DNA of 64,000 bases from a virus: IMG/VR virus record IMGVR_UViG_3300035698_022475, positions 49,459 through 113,458 of that record; one strand, written 5' to 3'. Position 1 is the first letter of the stretch, and each line of letters opens with the position of its first letter. The notes beneath the pieces are model-generated. The model was given only the letters and a program-made list of their open reading frames with translations, had not been told where the DNA came from and did not search any database. Shown piece by piece: positions 36,039 to 59,888 of this stretch. A program made the position numbers and the translations under genes.

Positions 36039-36293
36039 TCAGTCTTTGTCAGGTCCCCCAATTGGAGTTCTCTCTTGCAGATTCGACACATCATTTTTCA
36101 CCTCGTTGTACTGTTTGCCGCCTCCCTCCCAACCACAATCCTCACAGATCAGGGTCCCCATGGGGTGCGGGATATCATCCTTCGTTTCGCCCACATCGAT
36201 GTTACCACCTTTATGGATTGCATCAACATACGCAAAGGACGTGTACTCCTGGCGAAAGTAGAAGCGTGGGGAGTCGCACTTGGGGCAATTCAT
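36039..36293 (-). CDS. Zn-ribbon protein
   Basis: MNCPKC...CEDCG. Confidence 0.6.
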   Translation of the reverse strand: MNCPKCDSPRFYFRQEYTSFAYVDAIHKGGNIDVGETKDDIPHPMGTLICEDCGWEGGGKQYNEVKNDVSNLQERTPIGGPDKD

Positions 36294-37319
36294 CTTTTTT
36301 CCTTTCTTAGATCTCCAACCTCTTTGTAAGAGCCGTCTTTCATGAGTATAAAGTAACCAATTATTTCCACGCAAATACCTGACTCGTGAGCATAAAGGTA
36401 ATAGTGGCCTTTAGGCCACGCGTTACAGTAGATGTGCGTCATCGGCTACGCTCGCGAGGATAGTAGTAACCCGGATTTCCGATACATACGAAAACCCACC
36501 TGCCTGTGGCGGTTATGGTGTAATCGTAAGCGAGGATCATGTTCAGAGAGATCGCGTACTTGGGCCACGCAACAAGAGGGATAAGCCGTAAGGATATGCT
36601 GTGCGTAGTTACGTTCTCGGGCTCTATGTGTACCATTAGTGCCCCAGCACCCCAACCAATTGCCACCCGCACCCGCGATACGACTTACGGTAGTAGAGAG
36701 TTTTTCCTTTGCGGCGGCCATCTCTCGGCATTCTCGCCGGATAAAGGTAAACAGGAGTAACCAGCATTTCCCAGATCTCACGGGAGGGGTGCTTCCGCGT
36801 TATATCTATGTTGACGTGAGTCAAAATGGCACCTCCTTCCAGGTGAAGTCGTCGTCGAGAATGAAAGTGTACTTCTCTCTGAAGAAGTAATTGTCCGCGG
36901 TTGTCACCCACATCGAGATGTGCAGTAGTCCCCGGGAATTGTTTTCGACAGTAGCGTAGCGCGCATTGATGTGGGTCATCGCAGCCTCCACTCCTCGTCC
37001 AAGAACCAGTAGACCGTCATCTGACTCAGGTGAATTGTATACTTGGTGAAGCACTCTCCCCAGAACGTGACGGGCACTACAGTTATTAGGGCGCATCCTC
37101 TCCCCGCGGAGAGCTGCGGGTAATAGCTGACATCTATGTGGGTCATCCCCAATCGTCCCAGGGTCTCCAGTACCCCCCGATAAGCGCATAACAGCCCGTA
37201 CCGCAGGCTGGAGCTACGTAGTAGGACCTCCCCCAGTGAGTGTTGTAATGCGTTATGTCCATGCAGAGAAATTCCCCGCCCATCTTGGAGCGGCGTTGCT
37301 TGATGTCCACGTGTATCAA
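36290..37319 (-). CDS. Six coupled MxH micro-genes (starts 37319 IHVD, 37146 THID, 36979 THIN, 36824 THVN, 36636 VHIE, 36442 THIY)
   Basis: Each is 50-65 aa; every start overlaps the previous stop (TTGA, ATGA, TAATG). Confidence 0.7.
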
Positions 37320-37738
37320 TGCGACCCGTCCTTGACCTTGAGGATGTCCGCCACGATGCACTCCAGGCTGTCACGCCGTAACTTCTCGTATTCTCGACGA
37401 GCCCTGGCGAGAGAGTCTTCGCAGGTCTGGAGATCCCTGTCGACGTACTCGTAGCGGCGCATTTCCTTGTCGGCCTGCTCCTGCCAGTCCACCAGCGTGT
37501 CCCAACAGACGATCTCCCGGGAATCCTCGACGTACCGGTGTATGTCCTCCTGACATTCGGCCCAGGCAAGTTTGAACTCCATGGCTCGTGCGGTCTCTTC
37601 CTCTCCGCAGGAGGGCGGCGTAGCCTTTTCTAGTTGGTAGTACTGATACGCCAGCCCTCCCCACCCCGCCGTGAGAACCGAGAAGGCAATTATCATGATA
37701 GTAAAGCGTCTCTTGTAGTAGCTCATGATCTCAGACAT
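37316..37738 (-). CDS. Membrane-anchored coiled-coil protein
   Basis: AGGAGG RBS, N-terminal TM helix. Confidence 0.65.
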   Translation of the reverse strand: MSEIMSYYKRRFTIMIIAFSVLTAGWGGLAYQYYQLEKATPPSCGEEETARAMEFKLAWAECQEDIHRYVEDSREIVCWDTLVDWQEQADKEMRRYEYVDRDLQTCEDSLARARREYEKLRRDSLECIVADILKVKDGSH

Positions 37739-37791
37739 TGGTCCTCCTGTACTTCTCCCATCTCACTCATCATTATTTATCTCCTTGTGCA

Positions 37792-39158
37792 TCATCCCAA
37801 CACCTTTAGAAAGTCTGCGAAGGCCTCCTCAGTTATCAGGATCTTGTCCACCGGCAAAGGCTGGTTCAAGAAGGACTGTCCTGGACGTATTCCTCCGGTG
37901 GGAGGCGCATCATGGAATTCCCGACTGAAGCCGTCTCTACTGGACACCCAGCGGTATCCACCAACCCACGTTGATTTGCCATTGTAATGTCTCACGCTGA
38001 CTCTCTTCTGTATGAAAAAGCCACGACACCCTCGCGCGTATCGAAGCGCCACGCTGTACGCCCGGGGGTTTCCACAGACCAAACATGAGTGCTCCGCTGT
38101 TCATTCCGGAGAATGCCTCCCCCTGTATGTGGGCGTCGTGTTACGGCATGCGCGTTGAGATGCCATATAGTGGTCATTCCTATTTGCTTTTCGAAGTGTT
38201 GCATATTTTACTTAATTCCTCCTCTCGAATGTATCGAATGCTTCTGGGAGCGCGAGTAGGGTAGTGTTCAACCACAATTTCCCAATCAAGGCCCGGAGAC
38301 TTTGTAAACCATCGATTTCGAGTAACCCCAAGGCCCACATCATAATGCCGCATCAGCCTCCTCCCCTCTCTACGCTCGCTTGGAGGTCTAGTAGAATCTC
38401 AGCTAGATCCTGGTCAGAGGACCTCTTGCTGCCAAAAGCGATGTCGCTCCAAAAGGAGAACGGCATTTGCCGAGAATAAACCTCGAGGACGAAACAGTTC
38501 CCGCCAACAACCGGGTCGAACCACACAACATCTCCTACGTCGTTGCCGTCATTGAAGTGTCTCAATGTTCCGGCCTTCCCTGGGCGAAGTAGAAGGGGCC
38601 TATTCCGGGACCGCGAGGGTGCTGCTCGTACACGTGCTCAGAAAAGGCTCCCAGGTAAGTAGAGCCGTCGTACTCGACGTAGGGCTTCCAGCGACGATCC
38701 CCTACTACGGGAACACACCAGACGTACACAGGAGGTATGTCGTAATTAACGATTTTTCGGTCGAAGTGTCGCACTAATATCCTCCTGTGGGCCAAAAGCG
38801 GCGGCCCAACCATCGGGGTCGTTGAAGTTTAGGTGAACCATGTCCTGTACGGTAAATCGACATACCCTGCCCGTTACAGCCTTCATTTACTTGATCCCAC
38901 CCCCCCGAAGTAGTCTCCATCCAGATTAAGTAATAGTCACCGTTTCGGTCGAAGTGTCTCATCGTATTTCCTGTACTGCTCAATTATCGCTTCGGCCTGA
39001 GCCTGTCCGGCCTGCTGTGCGTGCATTAACCCTAGGGTCATATCCGCACGGAGGTCTACAACCCTCCCGTAGTGGTCGAAGAACACCTGGTCGAACCCGT
39101 CGCACGAATCCAGCCAGCCGGGACTACCCATTATGTTGTTTCCATCGAAGTGTCTCAT
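37792..39158 (-). CDS. Seven coupled M-[RQ]-H-[FY]-[DNE] micro-genes (starts 39158, 38962, 38774, 38565, 38353, 38204, 37995)
   Basis: 57-73 aa each; conserved first five residues with synonymous codon variation; overlapping stop/start junctions. Confidence 0.75.
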
Positions 39159-39613
39159 CGGGGACGCCGAGTAACGAACTCGATGATCTCTGCCAGCAGC
39201 CGGCGCCTTCCTACTGTCGAGGACGTCCAATACGCCTTCCTGACAGGCTCCAGCAGCTCGAGGATGTGATTGGTAGCCTTGTCCCTCTTCTCCCGATTAT
39301 GGTCCTCCATGACGGCCTCGGCATTGATGTCTTTGGCGCGCCACTCGGCGAGCTGCTCTGAAGTATCCTCCTGGCCCTGGTATCTCCAGTTACCATAAGC
39401 ATTACAGCCCCCATCGTCATCACGGGAAACATTACCTTCGTAGACCCCACCAATCACGTCGTGACTCCGCTTACCCGCGGGACCAAGCGGTGCTGTAAAA
39501 GACATAACCTCCCCGCCCGGGTCTACATACTGATGTCCGAACACACACTTACTTCCCGTATTTTGGACCTTGCGCCCGATGAACTTCCATTTTTCTATTT
39601 TCTTTTCGGTCAT
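39155..39613 (-). CDS. Hypothetical protein
   Basis: 152 aa, GAGGAG RBS. Confidence 0.65.
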   Translation of the reverse strand: MTEKKIEKWKFIGRKVQNTGSKCVFGHQYVDPGGEVMSFTAPLGPAGKRSHDVIGGVYEGNVSRDDDGGCNAYGNWRYQGQEDTSEQLAEWRAKDINAEAVMEDHNREKRDKATNHILELLEPVRKAYWTSSTVGRRRLLAEIIEFVTRRPR

Positions 39614-39776
39614 TTTCTCGCTCCTCGCAATCGTTGTGGAGGTATACCCTGTTGTTGATTACCATTAAACGTAACGCAATGGCGCCCATCACTCGTGAGG
39701 TACCGCCGCAGTAGTGACACACAACAACGACATCGTCGCGGTAACATAGCGGACATTAGATTTCTACGTGAATCAT
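39549..39776 (-). pseudogene. MxH/Zn-finger micro-gene with in-frame TAA at codon 7
   Basis: MIHVEI*CPLCYRDDVVVVCHYCGG aligns with the neighbour MTHFEVICPLC...CHFECTGG. Confidence 0.65.
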
Positions 39777-39777
39777 G

Positions 39778-39996
39778 TTACTTCAGCGCCAGGCAGTCGC
39801 CGTCGATGTTGTAGAGGTCCCAGGCGAACTCACACTCGGAAGCCGTCCCGCATCCAAGACACGTCATCGCGTAATAAAGCTTCAGGCGGCCCCCCTTCTG
39901 GATGCGCGGCTGCACACCGCCCGTACACTCGAAATGACAATCAGAATCAGTTAGACCTCCCGCACAGAGAGGACAGATCACCTCGAAGTGAGTCAT
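39778..39996 (-). CDS. MxH micro-gene with Zn finger
   Basis: AAGGAG RBS; MTHFEVICPLC...CLGC. Confidence 0.7.
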   Translation of the reverse strand: MTHFEVICPLCAGGLTDSDCHFECTGGVQPRIQKGGRLKLYYAMTCLGCGTASECEFAWDLYNIDGDCLALK

Positions 39997-40089
39997 ATAA
40001 GCTCCTTTCTGTTTAGTGCTTCTACCAAAATAGGAAGGGGAATTAGCCCACTCCCCCAGAACGGGGGAGGGGCTCACGGTTTGAGGTTG

Positions 40090-40959
40090 TTACTTGCCGA
40101 CCATTGGGATGGCACTACCCTCCCCGGTGACAATGACTTTATCGCCTGGACCTACCTTGCTGTACAGCAGCTTGTCGGCCTCGATACGCATACGATCCAG
40201 GTAGGCACGGGTGATAGCTTTCCCGACGATGGCGATGTACGCCGCCTCGGCTTCAGCCTCCGTCGCCCTCACCTGTTTCTCCTTCTCGGCAATCTCCTGC
40301 CGGTTCTTGGCCTGCAGCAACTTCATCGCTTGCTTGGCCGTCTCCTCGTCGATCTCGATTTCCTTTTTGCGCTTTTTCTCCACGGCGAGGGTTATGACTT
40401 CCGGGTAGTCAAAGTTCGACGTGTACGCAGCGATCAGCTCCATCGGCGTTCCTTTGAGAGCCTTCGCCAATTGTACGTTAATCGACTTCTGGATGGACTC
40501 GCGCTCTTGGCGGATACCTGTGGTGTCGTACTTGGACACCGTGTCACGTGCGATGGAACGTGCCGCGGGTTTTACGTACGTGTTGTAAATGGGAGTGAGC
40601 GTCAACAGCTTCCCCCCGCGCTCAGCAGCTACCATATTGGCGCCCTGCCGATTCAACAGTTCCTTGATGGCGGACCCGTCGGTTCCCCTCAAACGCACCT
40701 TAACAATCAAGTCAAACTTGAAGTTCAGGTCATCCTTGCACAGGATTGACAGCTCCTCCTCAGCGGCGATCTCTTTCGTCTCGATGAGCACCAGCTCATC
40801 ACGTCCCCAGCAGGAGTGGCGCCCAGGTTGGAGCGCCGACCCCGTGAGTCCCGCCGGTTGCATCACCATACCTACGTAACCGGGGGGTACCGTTTCGGTA
40901 CACCCTGCCAACAACATCACCACTAACGCCAGTAGCATAATTCCATAAAACTTCTTCAC
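40090..40959 (-). CDS. SPFH/band-7 (prohibitin-like) lipoprotein
   Basis: LLAGC lipobox; ETVPPGYVG...LQPGRH; C-terminal coiled coil AEAEAAY. Confidence 0.85.
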   Translation of the reverse strand: MKKFYGIMLLALVVMLLAGCTETVPPGYVGMVMQPAGLTGSALQPGRHSCWGRDELVLIETKEIAAEEELSILCKDDLNFKFDLIVKVRLRGTDGSAIKELLNRQGANMVAAERGGKLLTLTPIYNTYVKPAARSIARDTVSKYDTTGIRQERESIQKSINVQLAKALKGTPMELIAAYTSNFDYPEVITLAVEKKRKKEIEIDEETAKQAMKLLQAKNRQEIAEKEKQVRATEAEAEAAYIAIVGKAITRAYLDRMRIEADKLLYSKVGPGDKVIVTGEGSAIPMVGK

Positions 40960-41411
40960 TTGTTACCTCCTTGCATTTTGTTCGCTCGTTCGATTGCCTT
41001 CTTGATGTAATCGTCCTCCGTCCCTCCGTCTTGGGCAGCCTTTCTCCGCACCTCCTTGAGAACGTCAGGTAGTTTCTCTTCTCCGAGTTTCTCTTTCTCC
41101 TTGTCGCTGATCTCGTCTGGCGCCTCCTGCACAATCTGCTGGAAACCATCCGCGGATGGTGGTGGCAAATTGACGGGCTCTCCAGCACCATAAGCGCCGA
41201 AGACGAACCAGAGGCTTGTGGCGAAGAGGCCTACCGTGATGAGAGCGCTCACGAATACCTTGAGGAGTTCCTCACCCTCCGCCAGCTTCTTCCACTTGGA
41301 GAAGAGACGCAGAGTAATAAACAAGGCAATAGCGCAAAGAACCCAGGCGACAGCGGCACTGATCCAGACCCCTATGTCGGTGCCTGTGTTCGTTACTATG
41401 TTGGGGTCCAT
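40956..41411 (-). CDS. Two-TM membrane protein
   Basis: Two hydrophobic helices; coupled to the SPFH gene. Confidence 0.65.
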   Translation of the reverse strand: MDPNIVTNTGTDIGVWISAAVAWVLCAIALFITLRLFSKWKKLAEGEELLKVFVSALITVGLFATSLWFVFGAYGAGEPVNLPPPSADGFQQIVQEAPDEISDKEKEKLGEEKLPDVLKEVRRKAAQDGGTEDDYIKKAIERANKMQGGNK

Positions 41412-41412
41412 T

Positions 41413-42534
41413 CTATTCAACCTTTCTGATGTCATTCGCTGTGGGGCCATCGCTTACGTAAACCGCCGTAGCTCCGACCGCGGTACGAATCCGTTTCAAG
41501 AAGTCCTCTTTCGACGCACATACAAGGGCCTTTCCATCCTCGTACAGACGATAGGGCTCCTCCAGAAGGTCCATACACGTGACGACCATATTAGCACCGT
41601 CCACGTAAGGGTCCTTCATTCCTGCGTACCTGAGTAGATCGAGGTCGAGCAGTCCCCGCCGAAACACTCCTTGCGGACCGTCGTCTCTGTTGTTCTCGTA
41701 GGGATTGATACGGATACCCTCGTCCAGAGTATTAGTCATCGGGCCCGCGCCATGGCGCGTCTGGTAGGTACGAGTAACAAGCCATACCTGCGCAGGAGGT
41801 GCTCCGTAGTTGAGCTTGAGAATGTTCTTCGTACCTGTGTTCGAGGGTGTTACGTGAGGAAAGAACCCATAGTCCTGGTCAAGGAGCAGTCCTTGCGAAC
41901 CTTCGAAGATGGTGGGCTGCAGTGTGGAAATACAAGTCGGAGTTCCATCAATCCCGTCCGCCTTCACCGCCTCCTCACAGGACCAGTAAAAATCATCCAA
42001 ACTGATGGCCTCCTCGGAATACCCATAGACCTTGTGCAACTGCTCCATCTTAATCTTCAGCGCTGCGGGGTGGAACAGATCTTCGAACCAGATATGATAG
42101 TTCTCACGCTCTCGGCGCACTGTGGCGAAAATTCCTCCACCACAGCTCCCGTGGCGGTTGTCCACCTCGTCGTGTTTGTTCGTCGCTATCTCATACGGAG
42201 TAATGACGGGACTTCGAGCAGCGATGTTAAGTACGGGAGAGAACCCTTTGGACACCAGGTCTGCGTACTCGTTGATCAGAGAGATAGGGTTCGTGGCGCA
42301 GAACTCAGACCAGTAGGTGGGCGCCCCCCGCAGGGTGCCGCTCCCGAAGTGCGAAGAGACGTGGTCCCTCCCGTCGGGAAGGACGACGTGATGTGCAGCC
42401 TGCGGACCGCCTGAAAAGCGGCAGACGACGGGGGCGGTAGCGTGTGCGCAGAGCCAGTCTACGACATGCCCCTTACCCTCATCGCCGAACCCCAGTCCGA
42501 TCACTGCATGGTCGCCAGTGATCCTCTTCATCAC
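41413..42534 (-). CDS. Adenylosuccinate-synthetase (PurA)-family protein, divergent
   Basis: GLGFGDEGKG, RFSGG, FEGSQGLLLD, PHVTPS, RTYQTRHGAGP and RRGLLD motifs. Confidence 0.85.
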   Translation of the reverse strand: MMKRITGDHAVIGLGFGDEGKGHVVDWLCAHATAPVVCRFSGGPQAAHHVVLPDGRDHVSSHFGSGTLRGAPTYWSEFCATNPISLINEYADLVSKGFSPVLNIAARSPVITPYEIATNKHDEVDNRHGSCGGGIFATVRRERENYHIWFEDLFHPAALKIKMEQLHKVYGYSEEAISLDDFYWSCEEAVKADGIDGTPTCISTLQPTIFEGSQGLLLDQDYGFFPHVTPSNTGTKNILKLNYGAPPAQVWLVTRTYQTRHGAGPMTNTLDEGIRINPYENNRDDGPQGVFRRGLLDLDLLRYAGMKDPYVDGANMVVTCMDLLEEPYRLYEDGKALVCASKEDFLKRIRTAVGATAVYVSDGPTANDIRKVE

Positions 42535-43478
42535 ATCATCTCGATGTCTTCTTCGTTCACCCCATCGTCGTTCTTATGCACGCCTTTGCCCTCCTTAGGC
42601 TTTACGCCGGGCAACGGCCTCTTCCCCTGCACTTCGAGGATCTTGTCGGCGATGATGCCGGCGACATCGTCATGGTGCTGGGACGCGAGGACGTTGGGGC
42701 CCAGGAGGTCGCCCCACTGCTCCAGGCTGTCGGGCTGGCGACCGCGGTGCGTCTCCTGGATGTGGATGTGGTAGACCTCGTAGGTCTCCTGGACGCGCTC
42801 GAGGAGCTTCTTGGCCGTCTCATCGGACGCCTGGCTCCCCGCGCCCATGATGCGCTGCAGCGCGTGAGCCGGGAAGTGCGAGAGGGGCGGCTCGTCACCG
42901 ATGGTGAAGAGGATGCCCTTCTTCTTTCGCTTCTCCCAGCGGTCATGGGCCGTGTGGTTGGCGCCGAAATACCAGGCGAGCGGGTAGCTTTCTCCCGCGT
43001 TTCCACCGCCACCGCCTTCCAACCAGATGGCCTCGAGCCACTTCTCAAGCAGCTCATCGCTGGACTCAAACTGTCCCACTTGAAGCGGTGCCTGGTCCCC
43101 ACACTCGTGGTCTCCGATGGCCAGGAACATCACCTGAGGATCCTCGACCCCGGCCTGGAGGATCTTGTCCATCAGCTTGGGGAATCCCTCAGCCACGAGC
43201 TGATGGGGAACCCGACTCATGGAGGCCGTGACATCGAGGGCGATGATGATAGGGAGCGAGTTGGGATGCTCCTCGGAGTCCCGGGACTCACGCATCTGGA
43301 CGCCCACGGAGCGCATCTCATGATGCACCCGACGCTGTAGGAAGATGTCCGGGGCACTCTTGGGCGTGTAGCTATCGTTCACGAGACCGGTGTCCATCGC
43401 AAATCGCTTGTTGAGTTTGCCGCTGGTCACACCCCGGGACACGGCGTCGCTGTAGCTGTAGGTACCTCCACCCATCAC
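42531..43478 (-). CDS. von Willebrand factor A domain protein
   Basis: LDVTASM MIDAS, AIGD, QVGQFES, EGGGGGN..ESY and FTIGDE motifs. Confidence 0.85.
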   Translation of the reverse strand: MMGGGTYSYSDAVSRGVTSGKLNKRFAMDTGLVNDSYTPKSAPDIFLQRRVHHEMRSVGVQMRESRDSEEHPNSLPIIIALDVTASMSRVPHQLVAEGFPKLMDKILQAGVEDPQVMFLAIGDHECGDQAPLQVGQFESSDELLEKWLEAIWLEGGGGGNAGESYPLAWYFGANHTAHDRWEKRKKKGILFTIGDEPPLSHFPAHALQRIMGAGSQASDETAKKLLERVQETYEVYHIHIQETHRGRQPDSLEQWGDLLGPNVLASQHHDDVAGIIADKILEVQGKRPLPGVKPKEGKGVHKNDDGVNEEDIEMM

Positions 43479-43846
43479 TCACCTCCCGTGAAGAGGCGGT
43501 CATAGCGCCTGCGTGCGATGTCGAGCTTGATCTGCAAGTTGTGCATCTCGGTGCCGTACTTGAGGTCCAGCTCAACGAACTTGTCCGCGTCGAAGTCCTT
43601 ACCCAGCATCAGACTCTGGGCATTCTCCGGCGAGAGGTCGAGCATGTACTCGCGCTCCCTCTTCATCCGCTTCATGTCACGCTCCATGTCTTCGATGGTG
43701 CGCTTGAAGGTCATCTCCGCGTCTTCGGCGATGGCCTCGGCTCTGTCCCTCCGGATCTTTTTGTTGGTCCGGGTAAGGGAGTCCATGAAGGCACCCGACA
43801 ACTCGTCGGTGCCCTCCTCCTCTGGTCGTGTCTTCTCTTCAGTCAT
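43475..43846 (-). CDS. Coiled-coil hypothetical protein
   Basis: AAGGAGG RBS; coupled to the vWA gene. Confidence 0.7.
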   Translation of the reverse strand: MTEEKTRPEEEGTDELSGAFMDSLTRTNKKIRRDRAEAIAEDAEMTFKRTIEDMERDMKRMKREREYMLDLSPENAQSLMLGKDFDADKFVELDLKYGTEMHNLQIKLDIARRRYDRLFTGGE

Positions 43847-43914
43847 TTCGTTCCTCCTTGTTGTTGTTGAACGTTCAAACTACCGCACACGTGTTGAAAC
43901 CTTATCCCCTACGT

Positions 43915-44466: not shown

Positions 44467-44482
44467 TAGAACACCTCCTTGG

Positions 44483-45814: not shown

Positions 45815-45819
45815 GCAAG

Positions 45820-47906: not shown

Positions 47907-48490
47907 GAAATAGTCCTCGACGTGGGAACCTGGGTGTAGACCCAATTGAAGAACTTCATCGCCCACCTCTTACTCTTCCAGCGTTTGACATGAAAGCCGG
48001 TTACGCTCTTGGGTGGAAACTTGAGTTCTTTCGCTGTGTCGAAGTAATGACAGCGAGAAGTAACAAAGCCTGGATAACTACGGAGCAACTTCCCCGCGCC
48101 CTCTATTAGAGGCGGCGGACCAATCCAGAAGCACTCACGATCTCCTACCTGGTCAAGCAAACGCCGAACAGGCCCACGCACACAAGAAGCGGGGGTTCTG
48201 AGGGTGTTCATTCCCAGGACGATGATGACAGTGTCTGGTTTAAACTCGTTGACCAGCTCTGCCATTTGGTTGTTTCGAGCGAAGGTGCTGGGACGCGCTC
48301 CGATACGCGAATCAATTTTGAGCGTAGAGGGCGCCGCTTCGAACGTCTCCTCTATATACAGCCCCAACCCTGAGCCCTCTCCGATGAGAGAATCCCCGAT
48401 CACGAGTATCTTTCGATACCGCCACACAGGATTCGTGTCTGCGGAGGCTGTTGCCGCGACGAGCAGAACAGCCATGATAAGGTATCTCAT
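47903..48490 (-). CDS. Secreted SGNH/GDSL hydrolase-family protein
   Basis: Signal peptide; LVIGDSL, IVLGMN, WIGPPP and TGFH motifs. Confidence 0.8.
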   Translation of the reverse strand: MRYLIMAVLLVAATASADTNPVWRYRKILVIGDSLIGEGSGLGLYIEETFEAAPSTLKIDSRIGARPSTFARNNQMAELVNEFKPDTVIIVLGMNTLRTPASCVRGPVRRLLDQVGDRECFWIGPPPLIEGAGKLLRSYPGFVTSRCHYFDTAKELKFPPKSVTGFHVKRWKSKRWAMKFFNWVYTQVPTSRTIS

Positions 48491-48873
48491 TTATTTTTCT
48501 CCAGTATCTCGCGTTCCTTGTCCAGGTCACGGTTGAGGGCTCCGTCTTCGTTGAACTTGTCACCGAAGCGGGCCTTGAGTTTGGCGATGTTCTTCTCCCA
48601 CACCTCTTCGAAAGAGATACCGAGAGCATCGCACAGAAGCGCCAAGTACCAGAAGGTGTCGCCGGCTTCTTCAGCCAGGTTAACCTCGTCGAGCGCGCCA
48701 CCGTAGTAGATGTGCTTCTTCACAGCATCGAGCATCTCTCCACCTTCTGTGGAAATGCCAATAGCCGCATGGAGCAGCCGTTGAGTTTTAGGAGACTCCA
48801 GACGATGAGCGATCTGCTCGTGGTCTCGGCTCTCGGTCTTGACGGCATTGCTTACGTATTCTTTTGGATTCAC
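48487..48873 (-). CDS. MazG-like nucleotide pyrophosphohydrolase
   Basis: LHAAIGISTEGGEMLDAVKK...EEAGDTFWY...NIAKLKARF. Confidence 0.88.
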   Translation of the reverse strand: MNPKEYVSNAVKTESRDHEQIAHRLESPKTQRLLHAAIGISTEGGEMLDAVKKHIYYGGALDEVNLAEEAGDTFWYLALLCDALGISFEEVWEKNIAKLKARFGDKFNEDGALNRDLDKEREILEKNK

Positions 48874-48886: not shown

Positions 48887-50404
48887 TCAGTAGTCCTGAC
48901 GTCGCATGTTCCACACGTCATGGAGCATACGAAGACAGGTGTTCTCGGGGACATCTTCAAAATGAGTTCCTGTCTTGATACCATACTCCCCGCAAAGGGG
49001 GACAGTCGTATGAAGACTATAACGCCGGCTAAGGACGTTTTCACTCGGATAATGCGTAGCTTCTACAATAAGTGTGAATACCGGGGCGGCAATACCGTTA
49101 TTGAACTGCCGCTCCAGAGTCTTCCCAGTAACGTGATACACGCGCCCTCCTATTCGTAAAACGGTTGTGGTTTATCGTGATGGATATTGACTCCGTATTT
49201 AGGGCAAAGGTTATGTTTTGAAACGACGATAGAAAGGGGATTACGCTCTGTGTTGTACTCAACCATCCGGTCATTGCCGCGGTCAAACCAGTCGGAATGG
49301 TCTCGCCACCAAGTACAGTACACGAAACCCTCCCGGTGTCGGGACAGAGGTGCTTCGTTCACTACGACCGAATACTCGCAAAAGCTTTTCTCATAAGGGC
49401 CTCCCCTATCATGCCATGATATTTGACGTCGAAATGTTATCCGGCTTACGTGGACCATTAGAATACTCTCCCTACCAACACACTGTGTTCGCGAGGCAAG
49501 ATAGGCCCATACTCCCAGAGAGTCCGGGGGTTCTCACGAAGAACATGATACAAGGCCGCAATCCCATTAACCGCGTAGTACGAATACTGCGTGGTGTGAG
49601 TTGCGTAGTCTTTCAGGTATACAGTATTTTTAAAGACTCGCCGAAGTGCGACTCTCACATAGAAGAACAGATTGTCGTCCACCCCTCTAGTTTGAAGCTC
49701 TAAAATAACACGGTCAACGTGGTGCATTATACCACTCGTATATCCCTCGGAGACGTGAGGAGTGGGGCACCTGGTGGTGCAAAAAGAGAAAGGATTCATA
49801 GCACCTCAGTGTGGGCATCCAGTAGTAAAATCTAAACTCAACGCAGTAGGTGCTGGTGATATGTGGGTGTCTTACAGTTAGCACCTCAACACTAGAGAAG
49901 TGGACCATCAGAAAATCCTCCCCCAAGTCAACGACTCGTACCACCGGTATATCCAACGAAGACACGGGCCGTGGAGTACCTCGTTGTACCGATAGAGAAA
50001 GGACTCGGCAATACGTAACTTCCCAATGCGCGAGAGGTCTATGTAGAAAAATCTGAAGTCGATGGCGTAAGGACGTTTTAGCCTTACCAGCTCGAGCCCT
50101 GAGAAATGCTCCATCTTTACGTCGTAAACCCAAAGGCGGCGATTACACAGCCCAGTGGTTTTACGTTTGGGGGAATAGAGTGCCGGGTGAGTCTACCCTC
50201 ATAAGACCCATCCGGACGAGGATACGGCTTAGCAATAGTCTTGTGCACTGGGACGGGGCAGATAAACTGGGGAGCCTCTTCTAGAAGGCCTATGCTGCTT
50301 GTGACGCTTGTACCAGCCCCTTCGTGAGTATAGAGAGCCACAACCTGGATGACGTTGTCGAGATCCCTGTCCAAAGGACGCTGAGACATTAGGATAAAAT
50401 GCAT
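48887..50404 (-). CDS. MxH micro-gene cluster (starts 50404 MHFI, 50114 MEHF, 49908 MVHF, 49727 MHHV, 49458 MVHV, 49141 MYHV)
   Basis: 64-102 aa each, abutting or overlapping; preceded by TGGTATAAA at 50428-50436. Confidence 0.7.
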
Positions 50405-50771: not shown

Positions 50772-51001
50772 CGTAACCCCATAATCTCGTAATACGTAAA
50801 CATCCAGGCACCCGCACAGAGCAGGTAGATCACGGGAGGCTTGATATCTCCACCCTCCCACGTCAGCAACAAGAGAAGGGACGCTACAACAGCGCCAAAC
50901 ACGGAGCCCCAGAAAAGTCGTTTGTTTCTCTTCTTCATGTCTCAAAGTATAGGCAGAAACCAAAAGAAACGGAAGGGCTAAGCCCCTCCCGCTCCTACGG
51001 G

Positions 51002-51757: not shown

Positions 51758-52082
51758 CGAAGGGATACGACCTTTCCGGCTGCAACTCGAAGATATGTAC
51801 GGTTTGGGTGCCGTTGTCGATAACTGCTCCGCCGAGGTATCTGAAACGCTGGGGATTAAGCACCTCGCCGTAAACCGGCCTCAAGCAATAACCCTGAGTG
51901 GCCAAGTATAGATCTACGGGTACCGCCCCCACTTCGTCAACCGGCGCCCAGTACACAACTGCGGGAGTGTTCCCTTCTGTGCAAACCCCGACAAGAATTG
52001 AACCTTTGGGGAATTGCTCTGTGACGGGGCCGTTGCTAGTGTAGAGAGGAAGTACCGAGAGGGTGTACTCAGTCTGTGACAT
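51744..52082 (-). CDS. Hypothetical protein
   Basis: FPKGSILVGV...RYLGG...VHIFE. Confidence 0.55.
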   Translation of the reverse strand: MSQTEYTLSVLPLYTSNGPVTEQFPKGSILVGVCTEGNTPAVVYWAPVDEVGAVPVDLYLATQGYCLRPVYGEVLNPQRFRYLGGAVIDNGTQTVHIFELQPERSYPFDATV

Positions 52083-52704
52083 CCACGAGGCCGGTGCTGG
52101 TCAGGAGCCGTCCCTGGGGATCGGTCTGATAGAAATTGTTCTCACAGGCACCGTACTCCACCTTCCATGTGCCGGCATCAACGTCCCACTCGGCGTGCGC
52201 TGTGCACAGCATGTCGGTAGCACCTTCGCCCTCGGTAAGCAGCTCACCGGAGAGGGGGTCACGGCGTCGGAACCTGGTGCCCTCTTTGAGTTGACTCCAG
52301 TACCCCGACTTCCACTCGTGTGACCCTGCATTCCACACCTCGAGCATGACAGGAGGATTCACCTTCACGTCGGGATCCTCATGGGGCGGCAGGCCCTGGG
52401 CGTAGGCTGTTGCCAAACGCTGCAGCGCTTCGCTCTGCTCTTTGGAGTCATGCAGCTCCTTGTGGAGACGCTGTGACTCGATGTAGTCGTGGTTGAAGAG
52501 AAGCGCGTGATGTACGCCCTCGTTGACCCGCGGACTTGAATGCGGGACTTCCCGAAGACGATACTCCGGCGGGAGCACGAGGTGCAGAAGGCCGGGTGTG
52601 GCCTTGAGGTCAAGAGTAAGTACGAGCTTGCTGTCCACGATGACCTTGACAGGCCCCTCGACAGACTCGGTTTTGAATTCAACAATTGTGGGATCAATGT
52701 CCAT
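52069..52704 (-). CDS. Hypothetical protein
   Basis: AGGAGG RBS before MDIDP. Confidence 0.65.
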   Translation of the reverse strand: MDIDPTIVEFKTESVEGPVKVIVDSKLVLTLDLKATPGLLHLVLPPEYRLREVPHSSPRVNEGVHHALLFNHDYIESQRLHKELHDSKEQSEALQRLATAYAQGLPPHEDPDVKVNPPVMLEVWNAGSHEWKSGYWSQLKEGTRFRRRDPLSGELLTEGEGATDMLCTAHAEWDVDAGTWKVEYGACENNFYQTDPQGRLLTSTGLVDVTD

Positions 52705-54898
52705 TGTTTTCCTCCTGGTTTGGCTTAACGTGTCTAAACGTATACACACGTTCTTTGAAAGTAAAGGAGCGTCGAAACATAATATTAGAGTACATGTGGG
52801 TCGTCGCTGACGAGTAGATGTCTCGGGGCATGAGGACATGTAAGTGAAGAGACCGGGGAAGCTGGCTATTACGAATAATAGTGTACTCTCCTTCCCTTGA
52901 TCCGGGGACGTCGTAAGTCAGAAGTACGTGGATACCTTCACCCCCGAGAATGCCTACGTGCCGCATCGGCTTGCTATGCCCCGGGCAAGCGCGGCCACCC
53001 TCTTGGCTCCTGTGTCACCAAAGCGGTCAACGTAAGCAAGATATGGGCTACAAGGGTTAAAGGGAAGCTTAATAATGTTGTAGATACGAGGGCCTATCAG
53101 GAGGGAATAGAAGCCAGGGGCTTCACTAGTATCCCACATCCACACATAAAGCTCGCCGAAAGAGTTCAGTTTAGCTTGTTCAAAGTGCATCATCAAAGCC
53201 CCCGCGGCATCGGAATTAAGCCTGTGTGGATAAGCTTCTCCAATACTTCTTTTGTGAGAGTATCTTCCGGATTATCGAGGAAGATCGATTGAAAGCTCCA
53301 ACCCGATCTTGAGTCTCTGAACCGGTAGGCGACCCCGCCTGGAGCGGAGACAGTGCCTTCGTAATGTTTCAAAATACCCTCGGGCGACCTAGTTGCGCCC
53401 GGATGAAGTTCGACATCTCTTCTCCCATCGCAGCCTCCATAGCGGTTTGGGTGCGGGTGACGTAGGGACCTTCTGTGATTTGTCCAGCTCCGTGCTTGTG
53501 AGTTATCTCAACCCACGAGTACTTGGACCTTGTAGGAATAAGGGGATGCTGGAGGTATTTGCAGTCGAAGTGTCTCATTCGTCAAACCGCCCATGAACCA
53601 GGATCGAGATAGTGCTCTGTAACCCTGGACCCACCTACCGCCCCCCCGGCACGCCAAGAGAGCACCCACAAATACTTAAAGAAAGGGCGTCGCCCATCAA
53701 AGTGTCTCATTGGATTCCTCCTCTCTTCGCCGCAGGCGAGCAGCGCACACAGGACTGAGACCATATTTTCCGATTGAGTGAGGATAATACATTGAGTAAA
53801 TGAGTCGCCAATTCCGCGGCCCGCGCCTGGTCCAGCGTACAGCCCAATTAGCGCCGCCGCCGTCAGGGTCTAATGAATCAAAATGCCTCATGGTCCCTCC
53901 TTTCTACCTTTTGGATACTACCATTAAAGTGGTCTCGGACAACATCATCTCCCACATGGACACTGCCGCCCGCAACCGCCCAGTAGGTTTGTATGGATCT
54001 GACACAGTCAGGAAACAGAGGAGCTATCAGCGCTTCCGATATCTCGGCCTGGTCCCAGCCTTCTAACGAGGGGTCGTTAGCCTGAAAGCTACACTCGGCG
54101 ATAAAGTCACACCCTCGGGAGCCGCTGTAGTAGATCTCGACGAGTCCGCGAGCATTCGCTCCCCAGTTTCCCTCGCAGAAGCATTCTTGCAGATGAACTT
54201 GAAACATTAGTAATCTCCTAAAGAGTGAATCATATTCTCACCACCCAAGCATATCGTCAGGCTGCCAGTGAAAAGGGTGTACACGCAGAACGCTACCTGT
54301 AGTCATCACTCCGGTTACTACTTGAGGCGCTCTGATACTGTACAGCTCTCCAATCACTCGTCCACGGGAAATATTTCTGTATAAGATTACGACGGAATAC
54401 TTGGTGTAGGCCGCCATCTCCCCTGCGATGCTGGGCTCGGCGTGGTAAACGTGAATCATGTCCTTACCCCCTTGTGAATAGTTAAGGGTACGCAGTTCCA
54501 GCGCCGGCTGGGTTGTCGGAGGACGCTACCCGTAGCGCGCACCTCGTAGCGCCGCAGCTCCATTCCAATCGTTGTTACAACCGGATGCCATGTTACTATG
54601 AATGTATATATAGCTCCGGTGGAATATGTCATTATCGGAATAGCTTTAGTGTGTTCAATGTGAATCATCTCGACCACGCCGCTACTGAGGATACCAAAAT
54701 CCAGTGCTTGGGGGCTATTCGAAGAATACTCCCCGCCCTCCTCCCACTACCCGCACCCAAAGGAGCACAAATGGTCCAATTATCGATGCGCCTTGGCGCA
54801 GGATCTGCGGAGTTATAGTACTCAAGACGAAGAGCGTATATTGACGAAAAGCTATTATGTCGAAGAGTAGTAAGACCGCGGGGGCTTACGTGAATCAC
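52694..54898 (-). CDS. MxH micro-gene cluster (starts 54898 IHV, 54668 IHI, 54459 IHV, 53891/53710/53578 RHFD, 53372 KHY, 53193 MHF, 52966 RHV; plus 54207 MFQVH)
   Basis: 42-109 aa each; mostly overlapping stop/start junctions. Confidence 0.7.
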
Positions 54899-55132
54899 GG
54901 TCCCACCAATACGCGATACCAAAGCTCCGTCTTATACCAATTATCCGCGTTGGGAGGGACAACGTAGTCGTAGTATTCTGTATAGACGGCGCCTGGGGAT
55001 AGCCCCCTGAGTCCCCTATAGTGGAACTCGAAAACAACAGTAGCAGGACGAGGAGGTGAAGGGGCCTTAACGCGTTTACCTGTATTAATACTGTGCACCG
55101 CCGGTCGACCTGGCCGTGGGAGCGTACGCTCT

Positions 55133-55867
55133 TTAAGATACGCTGTCACGAACATCGGGGAGCCTCTTGAGCCCACGCACGATACTCTTTGCGTGGAAGG
55201 TCACACGCCGATCACCCGGGTAAACGACTGCGGAGATTGCTTGTATTGTGGTATTCCACTCAGCACGCTCGGCCTCCAACGCCGCGACGCGCTTCTCCAA
55301 CTCCTGCTGGTCATCGCAGGGGGCGCCGGGCTCGTGCACCCACTTACGGGCTATCTCACACAGGGCCACAAACACTGCATCTTTGTCACGCTCCAGATGT
55401 CCCAGCTTGTAGTAGGACACCATGTCAGGATGTGTCTTGGCTTCAGGGTCACGAACCTCCCCGTAAACCCATCCCATCTTTTCGTAGGCTTTCATCCAGT
55501 CCTGATGCAGAGCTGCAGCGTTGCTGCTACGGCCAGGCCCCATCTGTTTCTCGATGACTTTCTCGAACTGCTCACGGAAAGCCAGCTCACGGTCGTCGTA
55601 GGGCTCGGGGACTATGGGAGCCTCCGCGGCTGCCGCAGCAATACGAGTTCCCTCGTAAACGAACTTGGCTCTTCTGTAATTCAGACTCATGACTTTTTCC
55701 TCCCGAACGTGCAGGGGCTCCATCGTACAACCCCGACAGACAGCCCGGCACGCAGGAGGCCAGTCATGGCAACGCGCCTCGTACTCCAACTCTCCGCCTT
55801 CGGGAGCCTCGCCTACTCCGACAGTTTGTCCACAATGAGCACACTCACCTATCTTACTCGTCTCCAT
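55133..55867 (-). CDS. RyR-domain protein
   Basis: LHQDWMKAYEKMGWVYGEVRDPEAKTHPDMVSYYKL...DKD matches the RyR repeat consensus. Confidence 0.8.
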   Translation of the reverse strand: METSKIGECAHCGQTVGVGEAPEGGELEYEARCHDWPPACRAVCRGCTMEPLHVREEKVMSLNYRRAKFVYEGTRIAAAAAEAPIVPEPYDDRELAFREQFEKVIEKQMGPGRSSNAAALHQDWMKAYEKMGWVYGEVRDPEAKTHPDMVSYYKLGHLERDKDAVFVALCEIARKWVHEPGAPCDDQQELEKRVAALEAERAEWNTTIQAISAVVYPGDRRVTFHAKSIVRGLKRLPDVRDSVS

Positions 55868-55868
55868 A

Positions 55869-56141
55869 TTACTTTCTCCTCTTTTTCTTTTGTTTGTTTC
55901 TTGAGCGCTGAGAAGCCGGCCACCATCGTCCACAACCTTTCTTGCTGAAACAAGCCAAGCTGCGCTGCCCGAAGGCTATCCAGATGGACAGCTTCTCACA
56001 CCCACAATAAGGGCATTTCACGTCAACTTCCCCCTCTCCGTGAGGGTCACAGAGGATGTTGAAGACATCCTTCGGCCCGTCCGCTCCGTCAATCAGGTTC
56101 TGCCAAAACTTCCTTGTCTGGAGCTTTTTGAACCATTTCAT
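55869..56141 (-). CDS. Small Zn-ribbon protein
   Basis: CPYCG...CFSKKGC. Confidence 0.55.
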   Translation of the reverse strand: MKWFKKLQTRKFWQNLIDGADGPKDVFNILCDPHGEGEVDVKCPYCGCEKLSIWIAFGQRSLACFSKKGCGRWWPASQRSRNKQKKKRRK

Positions 56142-58092
56142 CTTTTCTTGTTGCCGTACTGTCTTGTAAGGCTCGTTTTGCATTCTTCTTTGTCTCCTTT
56201 GCTTTCAACGCCGACGCTTTGCGGAGACGTTTGAGCATAGCAGGGTTAGCCCGTAAGTGCGGGAGCTTGCTTCGGTCGGTGATACCCTGATCAATCAGTT
56301 CGTAGCACAAGTAGCGGGCTCGGCGACAAATCGCATCCCACGTACGGCCCGGGCATCCTTCCAGGATCCAACGACGCTCACTCGCACCCATCTCAGGGTG
56401 ATAGTGTTTGATGATGATGTTGTCCTCGGTGTGGTGGTACGGCTCCGAAAATACCTTCTTCGAGACCGTATGCGCCTGCTGGTGGCGACGCTCCAAGAAC
56501 CGTGATGACTGCCTATAGACACCCAACTCCCGGGCTGTGAGATTCTTGAACTCTCCGAGCCACTCGTACACGGAGTCATAGTCAAAGTTGCCTCCAAAAT
56601 GAACAGAGCGCAGAAACTCAATAGTGTAGTACTCGTGTTCGATGTCTGCGTGAACGTAGACACCTTTCTTCACCACCTCTATTCCGCGAGTATCCACTCT
56701 GCGCGTGTCACAACGTGGGATTTCCCAGTCCAGGGGGCTGAAGTAGGCGTTGCCAAACCACAGGAGAACACGCACACGAATCTTTCGGCCTCCTGTAACA
56801 TCAAACTCAGGTGATTCAGCAACGAAAGGACGCCTGCCCCAACGCTTGGCCTTCTCGGGGTTACGCACACGCACATCAAGAGTCGCACGAATATTGTACG
56901 CTTTCCGCATATGCTTTCGTATTTCTGCCATTGGAACGATCCAGAGTTCACTCTCTTGAGTAGCCTCCCCGAAGTAGGAGCGGGCCATCCCGATGAACTT
57001 CGAGTAGTCCACAGCGTAATCGAAGTAGGGGTAGCGCAGCCTGAACCAATCAACAAAGACAGCACCACAACTACTCAAAGGCTTCCCGGCCATCTTCTGT
57101 TCTTTCAAGAAGTCAACGAAGGTCTGACAACCAGCCTTGGTGCGTAGCTCTGCGTACTTCCCCATGTGGATGATAGCGTAGGGTATCTTCCGCACCGGAG
57201 TGGGATGGTAGGTGTAGTAGTGGACTCCGTGGTCCTTGGCGTTGGTGGCACTGTAGATGTAGGACAGCTCATAAAAACGACGGTTCTGGGGGTCGGGGAG
57301 GTTGGTGAAGCCCTCTTCTTCCATCTTCGGAGTGATATCGATATCCTTGTAGTCCGGGAACTTCTGCCGGTTGGTGTTGACCACCCTACTGAGACTGAGG
57401 GCACTGAGGCGCTGCTTAAGAGGAGCATCGTACTCTGACTGGTAGTAGAGTTTACGCAGTAAATCATCTGTGTTTTTTCCCAAGAGCCCCGGCGACTTGA
57501 AATAGCCCGAAAAGTTCTTACGAATCGTCCCCTGCAGTGCGTGGAGGATGAGACCGTCACTCAGCACGTAGTTGTTGAACTGCTGCAATATATCGGTTTC
57601 ACGTCGTGTGAGTGCGGGGTAGCGGACAGGGTCAAAGCTGACGCTGTTGAAGGCCAGCCCGAACGCTTGAATCATCTGCCTGGTGAGCAGCTCTGCCGGC
57701 ATGAGGGCCCGGCGCCGCACGAAGTTGCCGTACAGTCCCCACCACAGCAATGCAAGAGCGGGGAGGCTGCTGACGTTGGTAATCATGTCGGGTCCTACCT
57801 TAAAGAGGACACCCCAGTCGATGACAACCCAGAGGGGGCGCCGAATGCTCTCGAGAGGCTTCCGGCGTTGGAACGCCCAATCACTGGTGGTGAAGATGCC
57901 AGCAGGAGGCATCCTACCGTCTTCTGCCAGCTCTTCAAGAGAAGGAACCATGTCGGTGCGGTCAGCACCAAAGACGTGAGCGAGTACACCCCTACGCAGC
58001 TCGTGAAGCACAATACCTGGCCAGTAACGGAAGGCTTCGACAGCCCTCGTCAGCGGCTCAGATTCGAAAATTTGGGACAGCTTTGTATACAT
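56089..58092 (-). CDS. Large hypothetical protein with C-terminal Myb/SANT-like DNA-binding motif
   Basis: GGAGG RBS; YHHTEDNIIIKHY...ILEGCPGRTWDAICRRARYL. Confidence 0.55.
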   Translation of the reverse strand: MYTKLSQIFESEPLTRAVEAFRYWPGIVLHELRRGVLAHVFGADRTDMVPSLEELAEDGRMPPAGIFTTSDWAFQRRKPLESIRRPLWVVIDWGVLFKVGPDMITNVSSLPALALLWWGLYGNFVRRRALMPAELLTRQMIQAFGLAFNSVSFDPVRYPALTRRETDILQQFNNYVLSDGLILHALQGTIRKNFSGYFKSPGLLGKNTDDLLRKLYYQSEYDAPLKQRLSALSLSRVVNTNRQKFPDYKDIDITPKMEEEGFTNLPDPQNRRFYELSYIYSATNAKDHGVHYYTYHPTPVRKIPYAIIHMGKYAELRTKAGCQTFVDFLKEQKMAGKPLSSCGAVFVDWFRLRYPYFDYAVDYSKFIGMARSYFGEATQESELWIVPMAEIRKHMRKAYNIRATLDVRVRNPEKAKRWGRRPFVAESPEFDVTGGRKIRVRVLLWFGNAYFSPLDWEIPRCDTRRVDTRGIEVVKKGVYVHADIEHEYYTIEFLRSVHFGGNFDYDSVYEWLGEFKNLTARELGVYRQSSRFLERRHQQAHTVSKKVFSEPYHHTEDNIIIKHYHPEMGASERRWILEGCPGRTWDAICRRARYLCYELIDQGITDRSKLPHLRANPAMLKRLRKASALKAKETKKNAKRALQDSTATRKDEMVQKAPDKEVLAEPD

Positions 58093-59678
58093 ATTACCTC
58101 CAGTGTATAGCTCCTAAAAAAACGGCCCTCTAACAACATAATATCATTAAACTTTTTTGTGTTGTGTAGAACGCATAGCTTTTGACGTTTATACATCGCG
58201 CTAAGTCATTGAAATTACATAACGCCAAATTCCCCAAAACCGTTGCCTTTCTACGTAAGACCTAAGGGCTTGAAATCATTGAAAACATTAGGGGTCAAAA
58301 TACGATGTATTTTTACCTACCTCGTAATTGAATGATTACAAGAAGTTGCGGGACAGTTGTGTCGTGACGCGTTGCGAACGTACGATGCATTTTCCACCTT
58401 TTTCCCAAAACCACACCCTTTGCCAAACGTCTTTTGTGAATATCATTACGTTTTCTCCTGCCAAGTAGGAAGGTCAATGGGTTGTCATTTGAGTCGGACG
58501 AGAACTGTTTTATCTTGAAGAGCGATACATCCCCGCGGTTGCTGGGCCGGAGAGGCAACTTCCCAAAACCATTACCTTTCTACATAAGAGTTATACCACT
58601 AATGGTCTCGGGAAGTAAACTCCATTATAAGCACCATATAATTATATGTTCGACCCCACACACGGCCCGGGGGTCGAGCATTCAGACCTTTTGAAAACCC
58701 CAACGCGGGAAGCCCAACAACCGTACGGCTCAAAAAAATATACATAGCCTTTTTAGCTTGCCCGTGCGGCGAGCAACGTGGAGAATCACGTACTTTCACA
58801 TAAAAAATACAAAAGGGGTTTTTCCAACTTACCCCACAAACGCGATACAAAAGGGGCTCCTACACTATCCCACTCCACTACACCACCAACCACACAGACT
58901 CACAATGTACTCAATATAAGTAGATAAGCATACATTTCATCACCAACCTTTCCAGCGCTAAGGCCTACCGCTACTGACTTTCAACAGTATTATATCAAGA
59001 GGCGATAGACCAAAAATCTCGCACGCGTAGCTTCGGATACACACACATACTATACATCTACAATGAGTATATAAAAGCCAATAAAACCGCTTTTGTGTAT
59101 ATGTGACTAAATAAGGTGATTCTTCTCATTGCCTTGTTTACGCCCACCCCCCGCCATTCTAATTTACCTTATACTTACACATACTTAACCCTTAAAAACA
59201 ACCCCATGCTCTCGTAAACGCTTGCCCCCACTTCAAGCACGAGGTTTGCACCACCAGCCTTACCCCCTAACCCTATCATACCATTATACTTTCTCTTCTT
59301 AAGTACTGTCAATTGATTGGGACCCCGAACACTTCTTGCCCTACTTAGAGTAGGGCTGGAAGTGCTTTTAGCGATTTACGTCTCTCGTCCTGCTCTGTGC
59401 CAAACCGTACACCTTCCTACATAACACTCGCACAGCCTACTGACAGTAATGAACTCTCCTTACGGGGAGGTCATAACTACATAGGTATGGCGTTGACTAC
59501 CTTCCCCTACATAGTTAGATCGTAAGAGCGATATAGAACCCGTACAGTACCGTAGACCTGTACTGTATCGTGGCTATATCATCCCCCGATATCCACTTAT
59601 ATCAAAAAATAACACAAGCCCCCGGAGCCGGCGTTATTTTTTACATGAGTATACGATTTGTAATTCTACAGTATGTTT
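58093..59678. other. 1.6-kb AT-richer non-coding region (candidate origin/regulatory region)
   Basis: No credible ORFs; imperfect direct repeat CCCAAAACCRTTRCCTTTCTACRTAAGA at ~58233 and ~58562; C-rich plus strand; several hairpins. Confidence 0.55.
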
Positions 59679-59888
59679 TCAATTGGGGGGACGATAGGTG
59701 TGTTCTAATACTTCAGTGAGGGGTGTGTCGTCCGAGAGGAAGAGCCTGTCCCAGGGGGCGATGGGGTCTTTGACCCGCTGTGAGTGGGAATGGGAGACGT
59801 TCCCGGCACTATCTACTACTACGGAAAATACAGACCCTCCAACACCCCCGGGCCACTTCGCTACTCCAATTAAATTTACGTGGTACAT
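59679..59888 (-). CDS. MxH micro-gene (MYHVN)
   Basis: GGAGG RBS; TGGTACAAG at 59988-59996; hairpin with A/T tracts downstream at ~59604-59642. Confidence 0.65.
   Translation of the reverse strand: MYHVNLIGVAKWPGGVGGSVFSVVVDSAGNVSHSHSQRVKDPIAPWDRLFLSDDTPLTEVLEHTYRPPN

Follow-up and report, generated by a model that had tools for sequence, protein, structure and literature searches.

Why should some 30 tiny genes of one virus, encoding proteins of highly diverse sequence, all start with the same few residues? The question is raised by the window studied here, a 64,000-nucleotide (nt) stretch that forms the final 64 kb of the 113,458-bp linear IMG/VR virus record IMGVR_UViG_3300035698_022475, which was judged to be 63% complete. 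It carries arrays of 30 minus-strand open reading frames (ORFs) of 42–102 amino acids (aa) that begin with Met-x-His-[FYVI], and these micro-genes occupy 5.5% of the partial phage genome and represent about 20% of its genes (Table 1). The arrays are real protein genes under purifying selection, and their common start is conserved at the level of the peptide. The interpretation tentatively favoured, with a rough probability of 0.4, is that this start would be an N-terminal edge-strand contact module common to a library of small binders.

A scan for ATG, GTG or TTG followed by any codon, a His codon and at least 35 further codons recovered every gene of the initial annotation, all 30 of them on the minus strand and where that annotation had placed them. 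The micro-genes are translationally coupled. The starts of 23 of the 30 overlap the end of the upstream gene by 1–26 nt (4 nt in 11 cases, 1 nt in 6), as had been claimed, and three others lie 1–8 nt past it; purine runs resembling Shine-Dalgarno (SD) motifs upstream of the starts peak at positions -9 and -8. Nine of the ORFs have a single possible start codon, which in all nine is the start with His at residue 3 (His3), and, since an NTG in this genome precedes x-His with a background frequency of 2.8%, the enrichment expected by the initial annotation has a P value of about 1e-14. For the presence of a His3 start in all 30 ORFs, with any candidate start allowed, P is about 1e-36. Neither the other 49 kb of the genome nor 17 PurZ-linked viral loci contain a comparable M-x-H chain, and pattern scans of IMG/VR for two or three spaced M-x-H starts returned 0 and 62 matches, the latter about the number expected by chance, and no tiled array.

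The codon-usage score of the micro-genes (+0.02) is above that of shadow ORFs (-0.19, p 2e-11) and below that of long genes (+0.19), and a simple caller therefore loses about half of them. The suspicion that the ORF track had missed or mis-started many of the genes is thus plausible, and one mis-start is confirmed (see below); two members have no entry in a collection of 5.8 billion proteins. A profile search of 1.84 billion representatives yielded, besides the proteins of the window, one relative (P0009, 73% identity). A metagenome scan uncovered a syntenic piece of 3.6 kb from a related phage (L018), which carries 14 tiled M-x-H genes in the order of the window, with some gain and loss, around the same 152-aa protein. 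In all clear orthologue pairs between the two phages, the proportion of nonsynonymous differences (pN, 0.24–0.46) lies below that of synonymous differences (pS, 0.58–0.96, saturated). This comparative support covers the arrays at 36–40 kb, and those at 48.9–50.1 and 52.7–54.9 kb contribute one paralogue pair. It might be supposed that the ORFs are not genes, and represent chance frames or a non-coding repeat, in agreement with a codon score below that of long genes and the loss of half of them by a simple caller; however, the tiling, the excess of pS over pN, the invariant Cys and His residues in nine orthologues of one member and the absence of a DNA-level repeat leave this idea practically without probability, and for the 36–40 kb arrays it is already refuted.

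P0009 and a further protein, P0011, are encoded on one 181-kb NCBI contig, and two other orthologues, P0015 and P0016, come from contigs of 32 kb (JGI) and 48 kb (ENA). No match was obtained from scans of viral contigs, for which P0009, the 152-aa protein and the alignment of zinc ribbons served as queries, or from a scan of genome contigs with P0011. An origin of the paralogues by frameshift was also considered and dropped, as alternative-frame blastp found physical overlaps of neighbours only. It should be noted that four neighbour overlaps are as long as 25–29 nt (window 38180–38204 and 38937–38962; L018 405–433 and 1231–1259); in these, the codons for M-R-H-F-D double, in another frame, as C-terminal codons of the previous gene, and this dual-frame arrangement is kept in both phages.

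One start had to be corrected. The member that was initially read as MCHYC from a GTG (39549–39722) is mis-started, and its true start is the ATG at 39776, which gives MIHVE. In this record, the frame continues as MIHVE-I-stop-CPLC, with a TAA at 39756–39758; in contigs from two other metagenome studies (runs X1 and X2), a C at 39758 replaces this TAA by GAA. The gene is therefore a 75-aa zinc ribbon that has kept the motif, and the TAA reflects either a nonsense mutation of this strain or a fault in the assembly. The CPLC and CHYC knuckles of this protein are also found in its L018 paralogues.

The variation among 43 starts reveals what is conserved. Codon 3 is CAC in 38 and CAT in 5. Position 4 is Phe in 15, Val in 14, Tyr in 7, Ile in 6 and, in one L018 orthologue, Cys, so that it is not absolute; at least 12 codons are used there, and Leu, Met and polar residues do not occur although all three codon positions vary. 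Position 5 is mostly Asp (14), Glu (10), Asn (9) or Ser (4), and residue 2 is variable and never Pro. The synonymous variation described in the initial annotation is real (TTC/TTT, GAC/GAT, and AGA/AGG/CGA/CGG for Arg), and a fixed His3, a β-forming residue 4 and a free residue 2 bear out its conclusion that selection acts on the peptide and not on a DNA site. In the nine zinc-ribbon orthologues of the gene at 39778–39996, M1, H3, F4, E5, V6 and the eight Cys never vary, and T, V, M and E alternate at residue 2. His is residue 3, without any N-terminal extension, in 30 + 14 + 9 sequences, and this place is retained in genes that start 13–26 nt within the gene upstream, an indication that the N-terminal end is important in its own right.

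RegA of T4 is a translational regulator that acts on many early messages, and a sequence AUG-NNN-CAC-(U/G)U-N might similarly serve as an operator for such a regulator or as an enhancer of initiation, with the peptide as a by-product. CAC in 38 of the 43 starts compared with 64% genome-wide (p 4e-4, uncorrected for relatedness), A at +4 in 28 of the 43 and a high information content from +7 to +14 fit this explanation, which is nevertheless very unlikely. The A at +4, like the rare Arg codon AGA, is accounted for by the ATGA overlaps; about four Leu and three polar codons would be expected at codon 4 of the 43 starts (an estimate from column frequencies) and none is seen; CAT, TTT and GAT occur, as do four different Arg codons; and the coupled neighbours at 36039–36293, 37316–37738, 39155–39613 and 53878–54207 lack the motif, so that it is not required for coupling. 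Two further ideas were discarded: that positions 3–5 represent the queuosine-decoded set (His, Tyr, Asp, Asn), as Phe, Val, Ile and Glu are equally common, and a link to a phage tRNA-His, as the window contains no tRNA (nor any Rfam family).

Beyond the start, the bodies are highly diverse, as had been noted by eye: all-against-all blastp gives few links, and hhalign finds nothing between the two largest families. To judge from their sequences, the members fall into at least five families, whose subtypes are clustered locally along the genome; apart from the initial pentapeptide, Met-x-His-[FYVI]-[DENS], and their excess of Trp, these families have nothing recognisable in common. The M-R-H-[FY] family (12 members in the window, 7 in L018) is described as a β-hairpin plus helix, with a Trp about 12 residues on (W15), a turn with Gly and, in many members, a helix at the C-terminus, and its profile matches its own 12 members only in the genome. 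Members of the M-[TIV]-H-[IV] family share P-V-x-x-W and Y-x-F...D-G-x-W, with W24 near-invariant. The remaining groups are two zinc-ribbon types (single and double), a pair, a trio and singletons. The eight invariant Cys of the double type form paired CxxC knuckles, and Pfam rubredoxin and Zn-ribbon matches to the zinc-ribbon members are sub-threshold only; the motif is carried by zinc-ribbon and Cys-free members alike. No Pfam, PHROG or NCBIfam family matches any of the 30 members at or near cut-off, and the A2 profile matches no PDB sequence. The micro-proteins are enriched in Trp (2.15-fold, present in 42 of 44 proteins), Tyr (1.6-fold), Arg (1.6-fold) and Cys (1.7-fold), and their isoelectric points range from 4.3 to 11.2. 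A lineage-specific expansion of zinc ribbons, with about 35 copies, is known from Bacillus phage G (Iyer et al. 2021, PMC7824862), which is alike in that dozens of tiny paralogous genes, zinc ribbons included, occur in one large phage; however, here several families without detectable similarity bear the His3 start, and most members are without zinc ligands.

Structure prediction gave a usable model for one family, while that for the M-R-H family was poor. The AlphaFold2 (AF2) model of the 52-aa protein encoded at 36821–36979 has a predicted local distance difference test score (pLDDT) of 83 and consists of antiparallel strands at residues 2–10, 17–26, 32–41 and 47–50. In this meander family, the motif is predicted to open strand 1, an edge strand, and the register of the modelled hairpin would set His3 opposite the near-invariant Trp24. 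The initial annotation had envisaged a constant tag in front of a variable body; the constant start holds, and the place of residues 2–10 in strand 1 of the model speaks in part against a tag that is free of the fold. It had also envisaged, as a way to fail, that all members would prove to be one ordinary known domain with the His in its first β-strand; the His is indeed in the first strand of the model, and the members are not one known domain. Fold searches, considered with regard to known small β folds (propeller blade, Pur-alpha/PC4-like), returned only generic meanders: the best Foldseek E values are 0.08 (pdb) and 0.015 (viral), and the top VIA-align Z score of 6.0 is inside the range of generic four-stranded meanders. 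The ESM Atlas offered scores of at most 0.80 or poor models, and no lead, and a two-copy complex prediction of the 52-aa meander scored 0.02, which weighs neither way.

A place inside the fold, together with the confinement of the motif to array micro-genes, fits a history of pure descent from one ancient tiny β-protein, perhaps a zinc ribbon whose Cys disappeared from most copies, in which strand 1 would be the folding nucleus and His3 would have a structural role, probably paired with the near-invariant Trp on the other side of the hairpin, without a common partner or tag function. This is the main rival of the contact-module interpretation. It would be consistent with the local clustering of subtypes, the wide occurrence of Trp with near-invariant W15 in the M-R-H and W24 in the meander family, the inferred pairing of residues 3 and 24 in the modelled hairpin 2–10/17–26, and the Cys enrichment with scattered CxxxC remnants in Cys-poor members. 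However, the families have no profile similarity to each other, a structural His need not stay two residues from the chain end in more than 50 sequences, and zinc-ribbon members keep His3 despite a fold that is held by eight Cys, so that descent as the sole explanation appears rather unlikely. The occurrence of the motif on zinc-ribbon and Cys-free bodies, always at the exact chain end, fits a function of the N-terminus.

One such function could be metal binding. The amino-terminal Cu/Ni motif (ATCUN), H2N-X-X-His (PMC7701195), shares with the micro-proteins a His as third residue and a free residue 2. In an ATCUN-type site, Cu(II) or Ni(II) would be bound by the free amine together with two backbone amides and His3, and X-X-His is indeed found at the encoded N-terminus of 30 of 30 members, with residue 2 never Pro. 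An initiator Met is removable when Thr or Val is at position 2, and it is retained in front of Met or Glu. About 8 of the 30 members have Thr or Val there and are thus substrates for Met excision, and orthologues switch between T/V and M/E, which predicts that Met removal varies among them, so that the distance from the amine to the His is not conserved. Positions 4 and 5 are conserved without need for a metal site, residues 2–10 are modelled as a strand, and a literature search found no natural phage ATCUN protein. The ATCUN idea of the initial annotation is therefore weakened: the encoded His3 stands, the spacing does not, and a metal site is very improbable.

Another possible function is sorting. 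The capsid targeting sequence of T4 has about 10 residues and is removed by the head protease. In T-even phages, such an N-terminal sequence is carried by the internal proteins IPI, IPII and IPIII and by Alt, and IPI has counter-defence roles (PMC3012670). Like the arrays, the T4 internal proteins are diverse, fast-evolving small proteins with a short constant N-terminal peptide that are encoded at variable loci (PMC3012670), and by this analogy the pentapeptide might direct the micro-proteins into the prohead, towards secretion or injection, or, as a degron, to a protease. In contrast to prohead loading in T4, the motif of the arrays comprises 4–5 residues only, is modelled within a fold and has no link to a head or a protease that could be found; the micro-proteins do not fit a T4-type consensus of about 10 residues, as conservation stops after residue 5. 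The array neighbours are ThyX, PurZ-like, MazG-like, SPFH and RyR-domain genes, with no head genes among them, and the motif is absent from larger, cargo-like proteins of the phage. A sorting or processing signal is thus improbable. By its logic, the T4 capsid targeting sequence is the closest precedent for the arrays, along with lineage-specific mini-domain expansions such as that in phage G.

According to the favoured interpretation of a contact module, the array micro-proteins would be a lineage-specific arsenal of at least 30 members, and the first pentapeptide would open strand 1, which lies at the edge and begins right at the N-terminus of the chain. His3 and the acidic or amide residue 5 would lie on one face of the strand and the hydrophobic residue 4 on the other. 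Via this edge strand, each protein would contact one common partner, or a fellow member, through strand addition, and differing specificities would come from the variable bodies with their many Trp, Tyr and Arg residues. The enrichment of these residues and the wide span of isoelectric points favour such a role as binders. The 152-aa protein at 39155–39613 is a candidate for the common partner. The arrays are preceded by intergenic gaps of 93, 333 and 234 nt and run on into ThyX, PurZ-like and MazG-like genes; this promoter-proximal place in operons that lead to nucleotide-metabolism genes suggests that the proteins are probably early accessory factors, which might act in host takeover or counter-defence. 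The Met-x-His-hydrophobic-acid N-terminus might, moreover, be a recognition code read by one phage or host factor, as a docking site, a degron, or a metal or active site, which would control, assemble or deliver at least 30 binders with no fewer than five unrelated mini-folds; this proposal is possible, with the odds leaning against it.

Several points weigh against the contact-module interpretation. The motif occurs on array micro-proteins only and never on larger phage proteins, and descent fits this confinement as well as a portable module does. A usable model is available for one family, since the AF2 model of the M-R-H family (from a 20-row alignment) has a pLDDT of 55, and below 50 at the N-terminus. 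The excess of CAC at codon 3 (88% compared with 64% genome-wide) may reflect a minor nucleotide-level component, and for the arrays at 48.9–50.1 and 52.7–54.9 kb the comparison is limited to one paralogue pair. Finally, the common partner is putative, and early expression is deduced from gene position only.

Table 1. Micro-genes of the arrays and neighbouring genes (window positions; id, amino acid identity; L018, fragment of the related phage).
Position	Strand	Feature	Length (aa)	Start codon	First residues	Remarks
36290–36442	-	micro-gene, M-[TIV]-H-[IV] family	50	ATG	MTHIY	4-nt overlap with upstream stop
36439–36636	-	micro-gene	65	ATG	MVHIE
36636–36824	-	micro-gene	62	TTG	MTHVN	AGGAGG-type SD; weak counterpart L018 3300–3461
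36821–36979	-	micro-gene	52	ATG	MTHIN	orthologues L018 3154–3303, 3458–3625; pN 0.34 < pS 0.63; predicted four-stranded β-meander (AF2)
36976–37146	-	micro-gene	56	ATG	MTHID	orthologue L018 2987–3157, 44% id; pN 0.42 < pS 0.61
37143–37319	-	micro-gene	58	TTG	MIHVD
37792–37995	-	micro-gene, M-R-H-[FY] family	67	GTG	MRHYN	orthologue L018 2288–2503, 61% id; pN 0.29 < pS 0.75
37992–38204	-	micro-gene	70	ATG	MQHFE
38180–38353	-	micro-gene	57	ATG	MRHYD	orthologue L018 1867–2100, 41% id
38353–38565	-	micro-gene	70	TTG	MRHFN	orthologue L018 1464–1673 (MRHCN), 62% id; pN 0.24 < pS 0.64
38562–38774	-	micro-gene	70	GTG	MRHFD	orthologues L018 1231–1467 (57%), P0009 (73%)
38774–38962	-	micro-gene	62	ATG	MRHFD	lacks an L018 counterpart (gained or lost)
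38937–39158	-	micro-gene	73	ATG	MRHFD	orthologue L018 1029–1259; pN 0.46 < pS 0.68
39155–39613	-	protein of no known family, within array	152			60% id to L018 556–1029; no Pfam/PHROG match
39549–39776	-	zinc-ribbon micro-gene	75	ATG	MIHVE	TAA at codon 7 in this record; paralogues L018 239–433, 405–617
39778–39996	-	double zinc-ribbon micro-gene	72	ATG	MTHFE	nine orthologues, 50–88% id
40090–40959	-	SPFH/Band-7 lipoprotein				flanks arrays; phrog_200
41413–42534	-	adenylosuccinate-synthetase homologue (PurZ)				phrog_1211, E 2e-55
48487–48873	-	MazG-type pyrophosphohydrolase				near PurZ homologue
48887–49141	-	micro-gene	84	GTG	MYHVT	AGGAGG SD
49150–49458	-	micro-gene	102	ATG	MVHVS
49458–49727	-	micro-gene	89	ATG	MHHVD
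49714–49908	-	micro-gene	64	ATG	MVHFS	paralogue of 49908–50114, blastp E 2e-13; pN 0.35 < pS 0.62
49908–50114	-	micro-gene	68	ATG	MEHFS	first gene after 333-nt gap
52694–52966	-	micro-gene	90	ATG	MRHVG
52954–53193	-	micro-gene, M-R-H-[FY] family	79	ATG	MMHFE
53193–53372	-	micro-gene	59	TTG	MKHYE
53369–53578	-	micro-gene	69	ATG	MRHFD
53582–53710	-	micro-gene	42	ATG	MRHFD	GAGGAGG SD
53697–53891	-	micro-gene	64	ATG	MRHFD	AGGAGGG SD
54238–54459	-	micro-gene, trio	73	ATG	MIHVY	common G-S-[VI]-L-R motif of the trio
54456–54668	-	micro-gene, trio	70	ATG	MIHIE	G-S-[VI]-L-R
54665–54898	-	micro-gene, trio	77	GTG	MIHVS	G-S-[VI]-L-R; first gene after 234-nt gap
55133–55933	-	RyR-domain protein				flanks arrays
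59679–59888	-	singleton micro-gene	69	ATG	MYHVN	GGAGG SD

Among the genes around the arrays, the PurZ homologue and the MazG-type gene suggest, by their sequence similarity, that the phage may swap adenine for 2-aminoadenine (Z-genome). Two small Cys-rich genes without a His3 start lie directly downstream of the array on the minus strand (36039–36293 and 35897–36094), and one of them has sub-threshold Lar and zinc-ribbon matches. Scans for sigma-70 promoters and terminators gave no clear operon map; the sole striking transcription signals near the arrays, both on the minus strand, are a perfect TTGACA-18-TATAAT promoter match at 59312–59283 and a strong 13-bp hairpin with a T-run at 50996–50965.

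The large terminase subunit (TerL) of the phage is less than 30% identical to that of any cultured phage, and neither the micro-gene array nor the 152-aa protein has a blastn or tblastn match among cultured phages. DNA at least 99% alike to window positions 36290–40000, with two base differences only across 3.7 kb, is present in salt-lake and marine-sediment metagenome contigs from at least three studies, and the phage or a near strain is therefore widespread in saline habitats.

The Met-x-His-(Phe/Tyr/Val/Ile)-(Asp/Glu/Asn) N-terminal signature is undescribed and turned up in this lineage only. Small phage proteins are where most functions in host takeover and counter-defence emerge, and they are routinely missed or mis-started by gene callers; a five-residue start thus offers a simple sequence handle for finding such micro-proteins. 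If the start is a recognition code, it would represent a new type of N-terminal address for viral micro-proteins. A common reader, if there is one, would reveal a novel strategy by which a virus organises its diversified arsenal, and the short motif would then be a portable tag of potential value for engineering. If His3 is only structural, the arrays would still illustrate with unusual clarity how mini-proteins can diversify explosively while purifying selection acts on them.

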